This document shows positions 6,845 through 59,787 of a stretch of 64,000 bases of DNA, piece after piece. The notes below the pieces were generated by a model that saw only the letters and a list, made by a program, of their open reading frames with translations, was not told where the DNA came from and searched no databases. Within the stretch, counting starts at the first letter, position 1. The number at the start of each line of letters is the position of its first letter. This stretch comes from Escherichia coli. GTDB lineage: Bacteria > Pseudomonadota > Gammaproteobacteria > Enterobacterales > Enterobacteriaceae. Made by a program: the position numbers and the translations under genes. Where the stretch lies: assembly GCF_024298765.1 (NCBI RefSeq), contig NZ_CP101210.1; one strand, written 5' to 3'.

Positions 6845-7240
6845 ATGCGTGATTGGACACAACGCCCTGAATTCGCAAGCGTGCGGGCTTTACCCATCGC
6901 CGATGATGTCGCAGGGGGAATTTTCTTAATGGTGGCGATCTTGGGGAAGATACTGGCTGCGTTTATTATTTTGCGCCAGATACGCTGATTTGGGAAAGTC
7001 TGGAGGTTGGATATTCTGAGTTTCTTCAGTGGGCATTATCCGGTGATTTAGATACCTTCAATGAAAATGTACGCTGGCCGCAATGGCAAGAAGACGTAAT
7101 AAAATTATCGGCAACGGAAGCCTTCACTTTCTACCCTTTCTTATGGGTACAAAGTGAAGAAGCAAGAACAAGAAAAGTTATTTCGCTTACTGAACTCTGG
7201 GAAATGCAGTATCAAATGAAAGAAACATTCACGCAATAAG
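6845..7240 (+). pseudogene. Frameshifted ORF remnant (ybfG-like); N-terminal 47 codons in one frame, about 100 further codons in another frame with no start
   Basis: ORF MRDWTQRPEFASVRALPIADD... ends at 6988; the adjacent frame reads ...FAPDTLIWESLEVGYSEFLQWALSGDLDTFNENVRWPQWQEDVIKLS...KETFTQ* without an ATG. Confidence 0.3.
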
Positions 7241-7825: not shown

Positions 7826-7930
7826 GCCGGATGCGGCGTGAACGCCTTATCCGGCCTACAAAATCGCGTAAATTCAATATATTGCACCATCTTCCCAGGC
7901 CTGATAAGCGTAGCGCATCAGGCAGTCATA
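7826..7930. repeat. REP/BIME palindromic elements
   Basis: Two inverted REP units (gccggatgcggcgtgaacgccttatccggcctaca ... aggcctgataagcgtagcgcatcaggca). Confidence 0.6.
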
Positions 7931-7934
7931 AGTA

Positions 7935-8640
7935 ATAAATATCCTCCGGCATAGCCGGAGGTTTTTCAAATGCGCCTATAAGGCTCTCTTACCAGCCGCG
8001 CCCTAACAGGCGCACACGATCTGACATTTGCATCCAACTTCGTTACTTACGGCCCGTAAACGGGCTGCCCGGATAGGGAATCGATAACTGCTCTCCCATT
8101 TTATCCTCTTCAAGCTGGTGCTTTATGTAATCCTGTATCTTCGCCGTGTTCTTACCCACCGTATCGACGTAGTACCCTCTGCACCAGAACTCTCTGTTCC
8201 TGTATTTGAATTTCAAATCACCAAACTGCTCGTAAAGCATCAGACTGCTTTTCCCTTTCAGATATCCCATAAAGCCGGATACACTCATTTTGGGCGGGAT
8301 CTCCACAAGCATATGGATATGATCTGCACAGCATTCAGCTTCAAGAATCCGTACGCTTTTCCACTCACACAGCTTTCTCAAAATACTGCCTATTGCTCTA
8401 CGCTTCTCTCTGTAGAACACTTGTCTTCGGTATTTTGGCGCAAAAACTATGTGATATTTACAGTTCCATCGGGTGTGCGCTAAGCTCTTTTCGTTCCCCA
8501 TTGGGACCCCCTTTTGATTTCTTGTTTGACACTTGCAGTTGCCAGACCGCAAGGTGTTTTAACAAATCAAAAGGGGTTTTAATAACTGGCTCAAAGCTGA
8601 AAGCTTTCCGGAACCCCCAGCCTAGCTGGGGGTTTTCTGT
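7935..8640 (-). mobile_element. IS200-family insertion sequence (boundaries approximate)
   Basis: Contains a Y1 HUH transposase gene plus subterminal hairpins (cccccagc-cta-gctggggg at 8614..8632; cctccggcatagccggagg at 7943..7961); about 0.7 kb, as expected for IS200. Confidence 0.55.
8043..8501 (-). CDS. tnpA: IS200 transposase TnpA (152 aa)
   Basis: Near-identical to Salmonella IS200 TnpA as I recall it (MGNEKSLAHTRWNCKYHIVFAPKYRR...HIHML...CRGYYVDTVG); HUH motif and catalytic Tyr present. Confidence 0.85.
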   Translation of the reverse strand: MGNEKSLAHTRWNCKYHIVFAPKYRRQVFYREKRRAIGSILRKLCEWKSVRILEAECCADHIHMLVEIPPKMSVSGFMGYLKGKSSLMLYEQFGDLKFKYRNREFWCRGYYVDTVGKNTAKIQDYIKHQLEEDKMGEQLSIPYPGSPFTGRK

Positions 8641-8647
8641 GCACAAA

Positions 8648-26287: not shown

Positions 26288-26725
26288 TTATTGAGGTGCT
26301 TGTTGATTCTGATATGCAGTAAGGAAATGTTCCGGGTTTGCCACATCACTGTTTGACAACTCATCACTGTAGGCCACCGACCAGGTCGCCTGCTCATTCG
26401 GAATATGCAGGCTGCCATTCCCCTCTTTCAGGCGTAATAACTCAAAAGATTTGCCCTTAATTACGGCGGTATAGGATTTTTCACCTTCCTGTAATGCTTT
26501 CACTTTACAGCGAAAAATCTGGCCATCGATGTCATTATCAACATGCGATACCTGAATGAGGGCTTCATTAGAGGCTTTCGGCCCTATCCGCATCATCCAC
26601 ACCACAGCGCCTTCCTGCCCACGATAGCCAAAAACATATTTACCGATTTCCGGTTTGACCGTATCGGCAAACGCAGATTGCATAAGTAATAACGCACCCA
26701 TCAGCGCCGTCATAAAACGCAGCAT
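26288..26725 (-). CDS. Hypothetical secreted protein (145 aa) with N-terminal signal peptide
   Basis: Clean ORF with its own intergenic space and a signal peptide ending ...MQSAFA; function not recognised. Confidence 0.6.
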   Translation of the reverse strand: MLRFMTALMGALLLMQSAFADTVKPEIGKYVFGYRGQEGAVVWMMRIGPKASNEALIQVSHVDNDIDGQIFRCKVKALQEGEKSYTAVIKGKSFELLRLKEGNGSLHIPNEQATWSVAYSDELSNSDVANPEHFLTAYQNQQAPQ

Positions 26726-26988
26726 AGTATTCCCTCAATAAATCGCCTGAAGTGGTAGCAGAGATGCAGGCGTAGCGATCCCTGCCCTGTCCTGTTGCAA
26801 CGGGCCAGTATTTCATAGATTAATTTCCCACCACTATTGTAGAATTCCGAATTTCATCCTGTATGACAAAAGAATGGCTGTAGGGTGGGGAAAAAACACA
26901 AAGTAAACAATAATTGACGAATATAGCGCCATGCTGTTCGCAACCTAACCAAACAGTCACTTTCGAGCAATTTTCCTTGAAAAAGAGG

Positions 26989-27056: not shown

Positions 27057-27133
27057 GGCTACGTAGCTCAGTTGGTTAGAGCACATCACTCATAATGATG
27101 GGGTCACAGGTTCGAATCCCGTCGTAGCCACCA
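27057..27133 (+). tRNA. metT: tRNA-Met (elongator, anticodon CAT)
   Basis: 77-nt cloverleaf ggctacgtagctcagttggttagagc...cat..ggttcgaatcc...cca. Confidence 0.95.
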
Positions 27134-27142
27134 TCTTTTTTT

Positions 27143-27227
27143 GCGGGAGTGGCGAAATTGGTAGACGCACCAGATTTAGGTTCTGGCGCCGCAAGGTGTG
27201 CGAGTTCAAGTCTCGCCTCCCGCACCA
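27143..27227 (+). tRNA. leuW: tRNA-Leu (anticodon TAG, long variable arm)
   Basis: 85-nt type II tRNA gcgggagtggcgaaattggtagacgc...tttaggt... Confidence 0.9.
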
Positions 27228-27250
27228 TTCACCAGAAAGCGTTGTACGGA

Positions 27251-27325
27251 TGGGGTATCGCCAAGCGGTAAGGCACCGGTTTTTGATACCGGCATTCCCT
27301 GGTTCAAATCCAGGTACCCCAGCCA
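27251..27325 (+). tRNA. glnU: tRNA-Gln (anticodon TTG)
   Basis: 75 nt; anticodon loop ttttgat; T-loop ttcaaat differs by one base from the next copy. Confidence 0.9.
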
Positions 27326-27359
27326 TCTTCTTCGAGTAAGCGGTTCACCGCCCGGTTAT

Positions 27360-27434
27360 TGGGGTATCGCCAAGCGGTAAGGCACCGGTTTTTGATACCG
27401 GCATTCCCTGGTTCGAATCCAGGTACCCCAGCCA
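27360..27434 (+). tRNA. glnW: tRNA-Gln (anticodon TTG)
   Basis: 75 nt; near-identical to the previous copy, with T-loop ttcgaat. Confidence 0.9.
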
Positions 27435-27449
27435 TCGAAGAAACAATCT

Positions 27450-27526
27450 GGCTACGTAGCTCAGTTGGTTAGAGCACATCACTCATAATGATGGGGTCAC
27501 AGGTTCGAATCCCGTCGTAGCCACCA
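27450..27526 (+). tRNA. metU: tRNA-Met (elongator, anticodon CAT)
   Basis: 77 nt; identical to the first tRNA-Met. Confidence 0.95.
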
Positions 27527-27574
27527 AATTCTGAATGTGTCGAATATGTTCGGCAAATTCAAAAACCAATTTGT

Positions 27575-27649
27575 TGGGGTATCGCCAAGCGGTAAGGCAC
27601 CGGATTCTGATTCCGGCATTCCGAGGTTCGAATCCTCGTACCCCAGCCA
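27575..27649 (+). tRNA. glnV: tRNA-Gln (anticodon CTG)
   Basis: 75 nt; anticodon loop attctga. Confidence 0.9.
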
Positions 27650-27686
27650 CTTTATTCAAGACGCTTACATCGTAAGTGCACCCAGT

Positions 27687-27761
27687 TGGGGTATCGCCAA
27701 GCGGTAAGGCACCGGATTCTGATTCCGGCATTCCGAGGTTCGAATCCTCGTACCCCAGCCA
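27687..27761 (+). tRNA. glnX: tRNA-Gln (anticodon CTG)
   Basis: 75 nt; identical to the previous CTG copy. Confidence 0.9.
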
Positions 27762-33309: not shown

Positions 33310-34848
33310 ATGGCTTTTGCCTCATTAATTGAACGCCAGCGCATTCGCCTGCTGCTGGCGTTATTATTCGGTGCCTGCGGAACGCTGGCCTTCTCTCCTT
33401 ACGACGTCTGGCCTGCGGCGATTATTTCGCTGATGGGGCTTCAGGCGTTGACCTTTAACCGCCGTCCACTCCAGTCTGCCGCTATTGGCTTTTGCTGGGG
33501 ATTTGGCCTCTTTGGCAGCGGTATTAACTGGGTCTATGTCAGCATCGCGACCTTTGGCGGAATGCCTGGCCCGGTTAACATCTTCCTGGTGGTACTGCTG
33601 GCGGCGTATTTGTCGCTGTATACCGGACTGTTTGCTGGCGTGCTGTCGCGTCTGTGGCCGAAAACCACCTGGCTGCGCGTGGCGATTGCCGCCCCTGCTC
33701 TCTGGCAAGTGACCGAGTTTCTGCGCGGTTGGGTACTAACAGGCTTCCCGTGGTTACAGTTCGGCTATAGCCAGATTGATGGCCCGTTAAAAGGGCTGGC
33801 ACCGATAATGGGCGTGGAAGCCATTAACTTCCTGCTGATGATGGTTAGCGGCCTGCTGGCACTGGCGTTGGTCAAACGCAACTGGCGTCCGCTGGTGGTG
33901 GCCGTCGTGCTGTTTGCCCTTCCCTTCCCGCTGCGTTACATCCAGTGGTTTACCCCGCAACCGGAAAAAACTATTCAGGTTTCGATGGTTCAGGGCGATA
34001 TTCCGCAATCGCTGAAATGGGACGGAGACCAGCTACTTAATACGCTGAAGATATACTACAACGCAACGGCACCGCTGATGGGCAAATCATCGTTGATTAT
34101 CTGGCCGGAGTCGGCGATAACCGATCTGGAAATTAATCAGCAACCGTTCCTCAAAGCTCTGGACGGTGAGTTGCGCGATAAAGGGAGCTCGCTGGTCACC
34201 GGGATTGTCGACGCGCGTCTCAATAAACAGAACCGCTACGATACCTACAACACCATCATCACACTGGGTAAAGGCGCACCGTACAGCTATGAATCAGCCG
34301 ATCGCTATAACAAAAACCATCTGGTGCCGTTTGGCGAGTTTGTCCCACTGGAGTCGATACTGCGTCCGTTAGCACCGTTCTTTGATTTGCCGATGTCTTC
34401 ATTCAGCCGCGGACCATATATTCAGCCACCGCTGTCGTTGAATGGCATTCAACTTACTGCGGCCATTTGCTACGAAATCATTCTCGGCGAGCAAGTGCGC
34501 GATAACTTCCGCCCGGATACCGACTATCTGCTGACTATCTCCAACGATGCGTGGTTTGGTAAGTCTATTGGTCCATGGCAGCACTTCCAGATGGCGCGAA
34601 TGCGTGCGCTGGAGCTGGCGCGCCCACTGTTGCGCAGCACCAACAACGGCATTACGGCGGTGATTGGCCCGCAGGGTGAGATTCAGGCGATGATCCCGCA
34701 GTTCACCCGCGAGGTGTTAACCACTAACGTGACGCCGACTACCGGACTCACACCGTACGCACGTACCGGCAACTGGCCGCTGTGGGTGCTGACGGCACTG
34801 TTTGGTTTTGCAGCTGTGCTGATGAGTCTGCGAGCACGTAAACATTAA
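33310..34848 (+). CDS. lnt: Apolipoprotein N-acyltransferase
   Basis: 512 aa; polytopic N-terminal region plus C-terminal nitrilase-like domain. Confidence 0.95.
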
Positions 34849-34897
34849 TGTGCCTGATGTATCCGGCATGAACAAAACATACTTTCTCATTGAGTTG

Positions 34898-34925
34898 TGG
34901 GGCATGATTATCATGCCCTTTTTTC
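34898..34925 (+). terminator. Terminator after lnt
   Basis: Hairpin gggcatga-tta-tcatgccc followed by a T-run; abuts the stop of the convergent rhomboid gene. Confidence 0.6.
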
Positions 34926-36803
34926 TTACGGTTCAGGGATACAAGCCACATCGCCATATTGGGGATGCCGAATAATTGCCTGCGGATCAAGCGAGCGCGT
35001 CCTGTCCATTTGGATTAACCTGTTCTTCGCCATAACAAATATCTTTCTACCATCCGCTGAAAAACGAAGGTGATTAACGTAGCTGGCAGGATAAACGCCA
35101 ATAATCTGCCCGGCATTAATATTGAGCAGGATGACATAACCTTGCAGGCCATATGACACCAACGCTAAATATTGACCGTCCGGGCTAATACCCTCAACGG
35201 AATAAACGCTCCTGCTACACCATTGCGTCATAATGCTGGCTTGTTGATCCCCTACGCTTATACGTGAAATCCCCTGGCTATCGGCAAAAATAATCTCGCC
35301 ATTTTTTGGTCGGAATCCCATCGCAGAAACGATACCACGCGCATCACCTGTGGGAAAGTCTTCTTTCTGATGCGTGATGGTATTGATGCGTACAATGTCG
35401 CCTCTGACCATACCGGGTATCAACAATGTTTTTTCATCCGGGGAAAGTGCCATAACCCAGGCGCCTGGTTTACCGCTCGTCCCCGTCCCGTCGTATTTCT
35501 CCAGCGGGATATCCGTCACATGCTGATAAGTCACCAGATCAATGGCTGACACACTATTACTGGTGCGATTCATCACCCAGGCTTTTGTGCCATCACGCGA
35601 GAGGATAAGGCTGTCAGGATGGGCGCCGGTGGTAATCGACTGAATAATCTCCCCCGTCGCCACGTTAATGACCGATACTGCATTCGCTTCAAATGAAGTC
35701 GCATAAATCAACTTTTCATCCAGGCTTAATGCCAGCGATCTGACGCCCTGATCTTTACAGCCACCACAATGTTTGACTGACTTTTCTTTCGCTATGGGCG
35801 CTGTAAAGGTATGCAGGATTTTCTTTTGTCCGAGGTCGAAAACAACAATGCTGTTGGTGTTTTCAATTGCGGCATACAACGTATTACCATCCCGACTGAT
35901 CGCCATATCATGGATATCGGCAATCTCAGCGAGTAAATCACCACTGGCCTGCTCACGACTTACCGGAGCGGATAATGTTTCCCTGAGGGCGTTGCGCTCC
36001 TCCACTAACTGCTGCTTTTTTTGTCGTCGCTCTTGTTCAATCTCCTGCGGATAAAACGCTTCACGCAGGCTTTGCCTGACCTGTAAAACTGATTCATCAA
36101 TCTGCTGCTGCACAAACCAGATAGTCCCGGTCAGAAGAAGAGTGACCGCAACAATAATCCCGCCTTCCGTAACGAGCCGATTTTGCCCAACTAAACGCGC
36201 ACTCAGCCAACCCAACGCGCCCCCCGCAATCAGGCCGCCAATGTGGCAAGCGTTATCTATTCCTGCTTGCCGGGCACCATACAACAGTGTCAGCGCCACC
36301 ATACCCAACAGAGAAAATACTCGCCGCTGGTTTTTATGGTGTGTACCCGCACCTGAAGAAAGCTGTGTTGCTATCGCAGCGCCCGCTATTCCCATAATTG
36401 CCCCGGATGCCCCAACGCTGATGACTATCTGCTCACTTTCGTGTAACGCATAACAGGCGCTGATCAGCCCACCAAAGATGCCGGAGAATAACCAGATAAT
36501 CAGGAGTCGCCATTTCCCCAGAATACGTTCCACCGCTCCCCCCACCACCAGGAGTGCAAACATATTCATCAGCAAATGAGAAACACTGCTGTGCAGAAAG
36601 ACACTGCTCAATAAGCGCCAGGATTCACCCGACAACGTGAGAGAAGCAACGTTAGCACCGAGATGGATAAGTGCGGATTGATCGACTTCTTCATAACTCA
36701 TCCATTGTGCGAGGTAACAAAATATCCCAACACAGAGCGCAAAAAGGATAAGGGTTATTGCGGGTAATTGAACATTTAACGGCTTAACCGAAGATGCAGA
36801 CAT
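34926..36803 (-). CDS. Rhomboid-family intramembrane serine protease fused to a C-terminal seven-repeat beta-propeller (625 aa)
   Basis: N-terminal ~230 aa has the rhomboid hallmarks: WR motif in loop L1 (SWRLL), TM2 HxxxN plus GGAVE, catalytic Ser in GASGA, catalytic His in NACHIGGLIAGGA, and an extra seventh TM. A charged linker follows, then seven S-x-D-G... repeats resembling YVTN beta-propeller blades. Confidence 0.75.
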   Translation of the reverse strand: MSASSVKPLNVQLPAITLILFALCVGIFCYLAQWMSYEEVDQSALIHLGANVASLTLSGESWRLLSSVFLHSSVSHLLMNMFALLVVGGAVERILGKWRLLIIWLFSGIFGGLISACYALHESEQIVISVGASGAIMGIAGAAIATQLSSGAGTHHKNQRRVFSLLGMVALTLLYGARQAGIDNACHIGGLIAGGALGWLSARLVGQNRLVTEGGIIVAVTLLLTGTIWFVQQQIDESVLQVRQSLREAFYPQEIEQERRQKKQQLVEERNALRETLSAPVSREQASGDLLAEIADIHDMAISRDGNTLYAAIENTNSIVVFDLGQKKILHTFTAPIAKEKSVKHCGGCKDQGVRSLALSLDEKLIYATSFEANAVSVINVATGEIIQSITTGAHPDSLILSRDGTKAWVMNRTSNSVSAIDLVTYQHVTDIPLEKYDGTGTSGKPGAWVMALSPDEKTLLIPGMVRGDIVRINTITHQKEDFPTGDARGIVSAMGFRPKNGEIIFADSQGISRISVGDQQASIMTQWCSRSVYSVEGISPDGQYLALVSYGLQGYVILLNINAGQIIGVYPASYVNHLRFSADGRKIFVMAKNRLIQMDRTRSLDPQAIIRHPQYGDVACIPEP

Positions 36804-37257
36804 AAGGTGATTCTTCCTTGAAAAGACAGGTAAAAAGCATTTTTCCCGTGTGCAGTTATCATCCCGGCAAACGTCCCATGCCGAAAAGATAACCCTGTCC
36901 GAAATATGACTATTTCAGCCTAACATTACAATCGTAATTAATTCACCTATAAGTATTTTTTGGCATGTAAGTTGCTTTATTTACTGTGTAAGCAATGAAA
37001 TCAGCCGCGACGCAACCGGGTTGCACCACCACAAATCAGCGGTAGCACCAAAAAGGTGCGATTTAAGAATTTTGCTTCGGAATGGTGCGGCGCATCTCGC
37101 AAAAACAAACAATAAAACAGCAATATCTTTACATTTAGCCAAACTAAATGTTACCTAACAAGCACAACACTGCACAATAAAGTTGCAGATGATAACAACA
37201 CAAACACTCACAACGGGTATCCATGCGTTCTTAACGCAGAAGATAAAGGAGTTGGAT

Positions 37258-56858: not shown

Positions 56859-57824
56859 ATGAGTAAACCCATTGTGATGGAACGCGGTGTTAAATACCGC
56901 GATGCCGATAAGATGGCCCTTATCCCGGTTAAAAACGTGGCAACAGAGCGCGAAGCCCTGCTGCGCAAGCCGGAATGGATGAAAATCAAGCTTCCAGCGG
57001 ACTCTACACGTATCCAGGGCATCAAAGCCGCAATGCGCAAAAATGGCCTGCATTCTGTCTGCGAGGAAGCCTCCTGCCCTAACCTGGCGGAATGCTTCAA
57101 CCACGGCACAGCAACGTTTATGATCCTCGGCGCTATTTGTACCCGCCGTTGTCCGTTCTGTGACGTTGCCCACGGTCGCCCGGTAGCTCCGGATGCCAAT
57201 GAACCAGTGAAACTGGCGCAGACCATTGCCGATATGGCGCTGCGTTATGTGGTTATCACCTCCGTTGACCGTGATGACCTACGCGATGGCGGTGCCCAGC
57301 ACTTTGCGGATTGCATTACTGCCATTCGGGAAAAAAGCCCGCAAATCAAAATTGAAACTCTGGTGCCGGATTTCCGCGGTCGTATGGATCGTGCTCTGGA
57401 TATTCTGACCGCCACACCACCAGATGTGTTCAACCATAACCTGGAAAACGTACCGCGTATTTACCGTCAGGTACGGCCTGGTGCAGATTACAACTGGTCG
57501 CTGAAGCTGCTGGAACGCTTTAAAGAAGCGCATCCGGAAATCCCGACCAAGTCTGGTCTGATGGTGGGTCTGGGTGAAACCAATGAAGAAATTATTGAGG
57601 TAATGCGCGACCTGCGCCGTCATGGTGTGACGATGTTAACGCTGGGGCAATATTTGCAGCCAAGCCGCCATCACCTGCCGGTTCAACGTTACGTTAGCCC
57701 GGATGAGTTCGACGAAATGAAAGCCGAAGCGCTGGCGATGGGCTTTACCCATGCTGCATGCGGTCCGTTTGTCCGCTCGTCTTACCACGCCGATTTGCAG
57801 GCGAAAGGGATGGAAGTTAAGTAA
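56859..57824 (+). CDS. lipA: Lipoyl synthase
   Basis: 321 aa; CxxxCxxC radical-SAM cluster plus N-terminal auxiliary cysteines. Confidence 0.95.
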
Positions 57825-57855
57825 TCCTGTAATAATTACTTACATCTGTCTGATA

Positions 57856-57887
57856 AAAAACCCGCTTTTTGAAGCGGGTTTTTTGTA
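57856..57887. terminator. Bidirectional terminator between lipA and tatE
   Basis: Hairpin aacccgctt-tttga-agcgggtt flanked by A and T runs. Confidence 0.7.
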
Positions 57888-57924
57888 TCGAACAAGATAT
57901 TGAGGGAGCGTCCTGCTCGCCACG

Positions 57925-58128
57925 TCACTCTTTATGAGAGAGCTTTTCAGCCTGAAGATCAACGTCTGCGCCTTTTTTCGCCGCAGCATCGTCATCATTC
58001 ATCGCCTTCTTGAACCCTTTAATGGCCGCTCCAAGGTCTCCGCCCAGCGTACGTAACTTCTTAGTCCCAAACAGCAGAACGACCAGCGCCGCAACTACCA
58101 GCAGTTTGGTAATACTAATCTCACCCAT
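57925..58128 (-). CDS. tatE: Twin-arginine translocase subunit TatE
   Basis: 67 aa; single TM with F-G hinge, TatA/E family. Confidence 0.9.
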
Positions 58129-58256
58129 AGATACCTTCTTGACATATAACCGGCAACAGAACGCGCCTTAAAAACCAGAGAATATTAACGGTCATTCGAC
58201 GCGCGCACACAATAGCAATCTGTAACAAGGTGAATCAAGCGCCGAGTAAAAAAACA

Positions 58257-59051
58257 TCATAATAATTGCGGCGGCGCAAAGCGACGGTTGTTTAAAACGG
58301 GAAGTTGCGCGCGCACCTGACGCACACGTTCGGGCGTCACTTCCGCCATAATGAGTGCAGGCATTTCTGACGCTGCCGCAATGGTGACGCCAAAGGGATC
58401 TATAATTCGGCTTTGCCCGATATTTTTGTTCCCGCACTCCCCCGCCGCCACCATATAACAGGTGGTATCCAGCGCACGAGCGGCAAGCAACGTTGACCAG
58501 TGATGCTCTTTGAGCGGCCCACGAACCCAGGCGGCAGGAAGTACCAGGATTTCAGCTCCCTGTAATGCCTGTGCCAGCGCCAGCTCTGGAAAGCGTAAGT
58601 CATAACAGGTCATCAGACCGACCTTCATCCCTTCCACCTCCAGTAACGGAGCTATTTCATTACCAGCATCAACATGGCGTGATTCCTGAATGGCAAATGC
58701 ATCATAGAGATGCAGTTTGGCATAACGGGCGACGATGTTTCCTGCCTGTAGCGCCACCAGCATATTCCATGCGCGCCCCGGCGTTGAAGGAACATGAATC
58801 GTCAGAATTGTCGTCATCATGTTACGTTTACTTTCTCGCCGTAAACGTCCGAGGAATTCGCCTTCCAGCAGCTGTGCTGATTTAACCGATAGATCTGCAT
58901 CATGATCATCGCGCGCCAACAATGCTTCCGGCAGGACAAACAGCGAAACGTCGTTTTCCGCCGCCTGCGCCATCAACGAGGCACAAATCTCAGCGTTCTT
59001 TTCCCACACAGATGTAACAGCAAACTGTCCTGCGGCAACCAGCATTGCCAC
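58257..59051 (-). CDS. ybeM: C-N hydrolase (nitrilase-superfamily) amidase, YbeM-like, intact
   Basis: 264-aa uninterrupted ORF; catalytic Cys in the GLMTCYD context. Confidence 0.8.
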
Positions 59052-59140
59052 CTCCTCCTGTCAGAGTCGTAAAATTCGCCAACGGCGATTATTCGGCGTT
59101 ACACTTATCACTCATACAAATCAAATAGCAGGATTTTGCA

Positions 59141-59524
59141 GTGTTACAACTTCTTTTAGCAGTTTTTATTGGCGGTGGTACGGGAAGCGTGGCGAGATGG
59201 CTGTTAAGTATGCGATTTAACCCGCTGCATCAAGCGATTCCGTTGGGGACGCTGGCTGCAAACCTGATTGGGGCATTCATCATAGGAATGGGATTCGCCT
59301 GGTTTAGCAGGATGACGAACATTGATCCAGTGTGGAAAGTATTAATCACCACCGGATTTTGTGGCGGTCTAACAACCTTCTCAACATTTTCGGCAGAAGT
59401 GGTGTTTTTGTTACAAGAGGGCCGCTTTGGCTGGGCGTTACTGAACGTTTTCGTCAACCTTTTGGGGTCTTTTGCCATGACCGCACTGGCTTTCTGGCTG
59501 TTTTCCGCCTCAACCGCACACTAA
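59141..59524 (+). CDS. crcB: Fluoride channel CrcB (Fluc)
   Basis: 127 aa, four TM segments. Confidence 0.9.
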
Positions 59525-59528
59525 AGAC

Positions 59529-59559
59529 CAAAAAAAACCCGCTGATTAAGCGGGTTTTG
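59529..59559. terminator. Bidirectional terminator between crcB and cspE
   Basis: Hairpin aacccgct-gatta-agcgggtt flanked by A and T runs. Confidence 0.7.
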
Positions 59560-59577
59560 AATTCTTGCTGACGTATC

Positions 59578-59787
59578 TTACAGAGCGATTACGTTTGCAG
59601 CAGAAGGGCCTTTGGCACCGTTAGTGATTTCGAACTCTACGCGCTGACCTTCAGCAAGAGTTTTAAAACCATTAGTCTGGATTGCAGAGAAGTGTACGAA
59701 CACGTCTTTGCTGCCGTCTTCCGGAGTAATGAAACCGAATCCTTTGGACTCATTAAACCACTTAACGTTACCTTTAATCTTAGACAT
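59578..59787 (-). CDS. cspE: Cold-shock-domain protein CspE (69 aa)
   Basis: [20 protein letters not shown]... with RNP motifs; ORF-track start is extended. Confidence 0.95.

Follow-up and report, generated by a model that had tools for sequence, protein, structure and literature searches.

An intact ybeM gene, annotated as a deaminated glutathione amidase, at a locus that is a pseudogene in Escherichia coli K-12

Introduction

Does an uninterrupted reading frame at the ybeM locus set an Escherichia coli strain apart from the species, or is it the laboratory strain K-12 that departs from the rule? The question arose from a stretch of 64,000 nucleotides of E. coli DNA (contig NZ_CP101210.1 of the RefSeq assembly GCF_024298765.1), hereafter the window. 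An initial annotation of this DNA described an uninterrupted ORF of 264 aa at positions 58257-59051, called it a ybeM-like C-N hydrolase with a nitrilase-superfamily catalytic Cys context, and described the corresponding locus of K-12 MG1655 as disrupted. This K-12 locus was once split as ybeH/ybeM. The intact gene and the K-12 pseudogene are both already known and annotated, and the K-12 state is a documented lineage polymorphism. Neutral insertions have been placed in K-12 ybeM, regarded as a 'pseudo gene' (PMC7242477), and ybeM has been handled as an ordinary gene in the uropathogenic strains CFT073 and UTI89 (PMC5320621; PMC6206680). Here, we delimit the gene in the window, assign it to a family, locate the K-12 lesion, and estimate the frequency of the two alleles among complete genomes.

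Results

Gene limits and start codon

The ORF listing of the window holds an uninterrupted frame at 58257..59051, with 264 aa from a GTG and no stop inside. The coordinates and length first given for it were exact, and the strand, which had been left unstated, is the minus strand. The frame opened by the GTG is the maximal ORF, and the likelier start, as read from the sequence, is the ATG at 59045, two codons further down. We took the gene as 58257..59045 because of the spacing between a Shine-Dalgarno-like run and this ATG, the overlap of the GTG with that run, and the RefSeq CDS of the gene of E. coli strain 104, with which the identity is 100% (789 nt, 262 aa, WP_001305561.1). The features are listed in Table 1.

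Table 1. Features of the ybeM gene in the window (residue numbers follow the 262-aa protein)
Feature	Position	Strand	Remarks
ybeM coding sequence, deaminated glutathione amidase (Nit1-type nitrilase-superfamily amidase)	58257..59045	-	262 aa plus stop; from the ORF, Pfam, NCBIfam and an identical RefSeq CDS
In-frame GTG opening the 264-aa maximal ORF	59049..59051	-	Unlikely to be the true start: lies over the 3' end of the Shine-Dalgarno-like run; RefSeq uses the ATG
Shine-Dalgarno-like run AGGAGGAGG	59051..59059	-	Read from the sequence; 5 nt between the run and the ATG at 59045; putative function
Glu40 codon GAA, catalytic general base, LPE motif	58926..58928	-	Aligns with Glu54 of 1EMS; codon read in the sequence
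Lys110 codon AAA, catalytic lysine, KLHL(Y/F)D motif (KLHLYD here)	58716..58718	-	Aligns with Lys127 of 1EMS; codon read in the sequence
Glu121 codon GAA, second conserved active-site Glu (QES)	58683..58685	-	Counterparts: Glu143 in 1EMS ('mES'), 'kES' in yeast Nit2
Cys147 codon TGT, catalytic nucleophile, CYD(L/V/I)RFPE motif	58605..58607	-	Counterparts: Cys169 in 1EMS, the Cys in 4H5U (yeast Nit2)
K-12 lesion site: G at nt 200, codon 67 (CGT=Arg)	58846	-	Kept here, deleted in MG1655 and other carriers; alignment with NC_000913.3

Family assignment and catalytic residues

The encoded protein matches the Pfam family CN_hydrolase (PF00795) with 141.4 bits against a cutoff of 23.2 (E=4e-41; residues 3-245 on positions 2-255 of the 256 of the profile) and the NCBIfam model NF033621 (de_GSH_amidase) with 451.5 bits against a cutoff of 355 (E=8e-136; residues 3-261 on positions 2-260 of 260). 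Since both matches are full-length, this is no chance ORF. The superfamily had been correctly recognised in the initial annotation, but its label was too general: the exact protein belongs to a public cluster of 3,131 members already named 'deaminated glutathione amidase'. The gene lies between crcB and tatE, the orthologous position of ybeM in E. coli, in the order lipA, tatE, ybeM, crcB, cspE, pagP that is also found in K-12 and in strain 104. Compared with the E. coli YbeM covered by NF033621 (WP_001305561.1), we found no difference, since the protein and the context crcB - ybeM - tatE - lipA are identical. With high confidence, the ORF is the intact ybeM gene of E. coli, and it encodes a Nit1-type nitrilase-superfamily protein annotated as deaminated glutathione (dGSH) amidase, with a predicted substrate and chemistry.

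The two top PDB matches of YbeM both belong to the Nit1 branch, namely NitFhit of Caenorhabditis elegans (1EMS, E=1.7e-29) and Nit2 of yeast (4H5U, E=1.1e-26). The GLMTC147YDLRFPE motif aligns with the motif of the catalytic Cys169 in the former and with its counterpart in the latter, which bears out the catalytic Cys context that was first noticed. In the structure alignment, the position of Cys147 is occupied by Ser in a mutant chain of yeast Nit2 (4HGD). A check of the Glu-Lys-Cys triad against known structures had been proposed at the outset, and Glu40, Lys110, and Cys147 all aligned, together with Glu121. The roles given to these four residues are established knowledge for the nitrilase superfamily. 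YbeM, the Nit domain of C. elegans NitFhit (1EMS), and Saccharomyces cerevisiae Nit2 (4H5U/4HG3) have in common the fold family, the Glu-Lys-Cys(-Glu) residues, and conserved motifs nearby. The eukaryotic Nit1 branch is nonetheless distant (E about 1e-27 to 1e-30), and YbeM differs from it by the lack of a Fhit fusion; it is also shorter, at 262 aa, and does not have the insertions of yeast Nit2.

The K-12 lesion

In K-12 MG1655, ybeM (b4581; NC_000913.3 658031..658818) is annotated as a pseudogene and measures 788 nt, one less than the 789 nt of the window gene. The global pairwise alignment of the two genes, which had been suggested as a check, has 13 substitutions and a single gap (98.4% nucleotide identity) and places the lesion at nt 200, in codon 67. 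The deletion of one G turns GGACGTTTAC into GGACTTTAC. The shifted frame ends at TGATGA and specifies a product of 75 aa that keeps Glu40 and loses Lys110 and Cys147, the rest of the gene lying in another frame. The initial description of this K-12 locus as disrupted was thus accurate: b4581 is flagged as a pseudogene, has a one-base deletion, and does not have the intact ORF of the window, its frame being broken at codon 67. When the G is put back, K-12 has an ORF of 262 aa, and V33A, V37A, and H124R are then the only differences from the window protein. Two of these changes, V33A and V37A (nt 98 and 110 of ybeM), are close to the catalytic Glu40.

Frequency of the two alleles in the species

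Of the 5,426 complete genomes of E. coli, 5,424 have the ybeM locus. Using a probe centred on the lesion site, we found exact matches to the intact allele of 81 nt in 3,533 records and exact matches to the K-12 deletion allele of 80 nt in 859, i.e., about 16% of the complete genomes. The genomes outside these two sets have SNPs within the probe, and the sampled ones span 81 nt, which puts them in frame at the site. The gene is also intact in BL21. Most E. coli have this core gene in its intact form, which is no peculiarity of the window strain. Yet, because about 16% of the complete genomes do without it, the gene is dispensable under at least some lifestyles. A 'nitrilase-related' match in UTME-9 (94%) was considered as a variant allele and rejected, since its neighbouring genes are all frameshifted, as expected from a low-quality assembly.

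The deletion is not restricted to laboratory derivatives of K-12. It is carried by the human blood isolate 219 (genome of 5.0 Mb) and by the bovine mastitis isolate 26561, in both of which the gene is annotated as 'deaminated glutathione amidase, frameshifted'. The two isolates have the identical deletion of K-12 and have neither V33A nor V37A. These three sequences fit one deletion in a common ancestor, after which the gene decayed further in the K-12 line, and the two extra missense changes of K-12 hint that this decay may have been ongoing after the frameshift.

Selection and expression

Relative to the repaired ybeM of K-12, the window gene has nine synonymous and three nonsynonymous codon differences; relative to that of BL21, there are ten synonymous differences and one nonsynonymous (H124R). 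This excess of synonymous changes between alleles is consistent with purifying selection. In the uropathogenic strain CFT073, an NsrR ChIP peak was found at ybeM and the expression of the gene is lower under NO stress (PMC5320621). A simple scan of the intergenic region between ybeM and crcB revealed no sigma-70-like promoter, and the same scan gave only two weak terminator-like hairpins, no more than expected by chance. The search of this divergent intergenic region with Rfam (E<=1) gave no RNA element, e.g., no fluoride riboswitch. The sole strong Rfam match in 57700-59700 is a 5'UTR of the cspA type over cspE. This element, at 59530-59700 on the minus strand, is of the cspA-thermoregulator type (RF01766), and its 75.8 bits fall slightly short of the gathering score (78); it covers cspE and its 5' region, and the match is clipped at the end of the searched stretch.

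Other differences from K-12 in the window

The whole window is collinear with positions 653-723 kb of K-12 MG1655, in reverse orientation. Several segments differ between the two strains. A stretch of around 2.2 kb at 34843-37012, between lnt and gltI, is absent from K-12, which has IS5D in its place; the K-12 arrangement may stem from a deletion associated with IS5. Within this stretch, a minus-strand ORF of 625 aa (34926..36803) encodes an N-terminal Rhomboid intramembrane-protease domain (PF01694, 101 bits), with a C-terminal beta-propeller fused to it (weak YNCE-like, WD40, and lactonase matches). About 720 bp at ~7925-8644, between an ORF for a ybfP-like lipoprotein and pgm, are inserted relative to K-12 and contain an IS200-like Y1 transposase (PF01797, 130.8 bits; ORF 8043..8498 on the minus strand). 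Another stretch of about 430 bp without K-12 counterpart is found at 26376-26803, between asnB and a tRNA cluster; all seven tRNAs of the latter (metT-leuW-glnU-glnW-metU-glnV-glnX) are present at 27057-27761. Conversely, the K-12 segment of ~8 kb with ybeQ-ybeR-djlB-ybeT-ybeU-djlC-hscC (K-12 675.5-683.5 kb) is missing at the junction ~41535/41572, where rihA adjoins ybeL. Around 250 bp of the K-12 pseudogene ybfG (K-12 716337-716590) are missing at 6852/6853, and the ybfG/ybfI region differs between the strains.

Discussion

What would the intact protein do? By analogy with its superfamily, the thiolate of Cys147, with Glu40 as base, would attack the carbonyl of the gamma-amide that joins the 2-oxoglutaryl moiety of dGSH to Cys-Gly. 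Cys-Gly would then depart, leaving a thioester acyl-enzyme with Lys110 stabilising the oxyanion, and a water molecule placed by Glu121 and Glu40 would hydrolyse the thioester to release 2-oxoglutarate. In this scheme, dGSH is a useless side-product of transaminases acting on glutathione, and its destruction by YbeM would be a form of metabolite repair. We infer both the substrate and the chemistry from the family annotation, i.e., the name of the curated NCBI model, and from a study of 2017, in which Peracchi and colleagues reportedly described dGSH amidase activity for the E. coli homologue, an activity said to be common to eukaryotic proteins of the Nit1 branch. The Nit1 reaction itself, in which dGSH yields 2-oxoglutarate and Cys-Gly, has been summarised as a repair that removes a side-product of transaminases (PMC10452834, with reference to Peracchi et al. 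2017). In another paper, YbeM is given as the equivalent of NIT1, under the name deaminated glutathione amidase, and YafV separately as that of NIT2 (PMC8788347).

YbeM might instead be an omega-amidase of the Nit2/YafV type, or another C-N hydrolase, whose physiological substrate is not dGSH. The Nit1 and Nit2 branches are akin; mouse Nit2 (2W1V, E=4e-22) and yeast Nit3 (1F89, E=6e-20) also match the protein, and there are weak matches to several other NCBIfam models of the nitrilase superfamily. These models nevertheless stay far under their cutoffs: the YafV/omega-amidase model NF007757 gives only a partial match with 61.5 bits against 249, the aguB model 63 against 410, and all others of the superfamily behave alike, whereas the match to the dGSH amidase model is above its cutoff and spans the full length. 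YbeM thus differs in subfamily from E. coli YafV, with which it has in common the superfamily and the catalytic chemistry. As the nearest solved structures are also of the Nit1 branch, we regard another substrate as improbable and favor dGSH. A somewhat smaller probability goes to the idea that the ORF is intact but silent or decaying in the window strain, either unexpressed or inactivated by missense changes. The simple scan found no consensus promoter upstream, and K-12, like hundreds of wild isolates, dispenses with the gene. Against this, at least 1,000 contigs carry the exact protein, its catalytic residues are intact, a single residue (H124R) separates it from BL21 for ten synonymous codon differences, and in CFT073 the level of the ybeM transcript changes under NO stress (PMC5320621).

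Least probable of all, to the point of being barely credible, is that K-12 has not really lost the gene, the pseudogene being a sequencing artefact or being rescued by programmed frameshifting or re-initiation, so that the strains would be functionally equivalent. The TGATGA stop of K-12 does overlap an in-frame ATGATG (Met76-Met77), from which a C-terminal fragment of 187 aa could conceivably be re-initiated, but such a fragment would be devoid of Glu40 and of the N-terminal core strands. We rejected a sequencing error and a programmed frameshift, as the identical deletion is present in 859 independently assembled genomes and there is no homopolymer or slippery heptamer at the site (GGACGTTT to GGACTTT). 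The presence in K-12 of V33A and V37A, absent from the two wild carriers, is consistent with decay after inactivation. We thus retain the reading of an intact gene in the window strain and a true frameshift, with loss of the enzyme, in K-12 and a related natural lineage. A bolder reading, which we consider unlikely though less so than these alternatives, is that the frameshift is no accident of the laboratory and marks a natural lineage of E. coli in which dGSH repair is absent (~16% of the complete genomes, among them isolates from the bloodstream, mastitis, and poultry). If true, K-12 and its wild relatives would be a ready-made natural knockout, and the loss of the amidase might be neutral or advantageous in some niches.

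The importance of the finding is small beyond housekeeping. Still, it is K-12, as a natural ybeM null, that stands apart, and the window strain, like most E. coli, keeps a predicted metabolite-repair amidase. This is worth bearing in mind where K-12 is the reference for studies of metabolism or of glutathione damage, and where ybeM is chosen as a 'neutral' integration site, as it is a live gene in non-K-12 strains.
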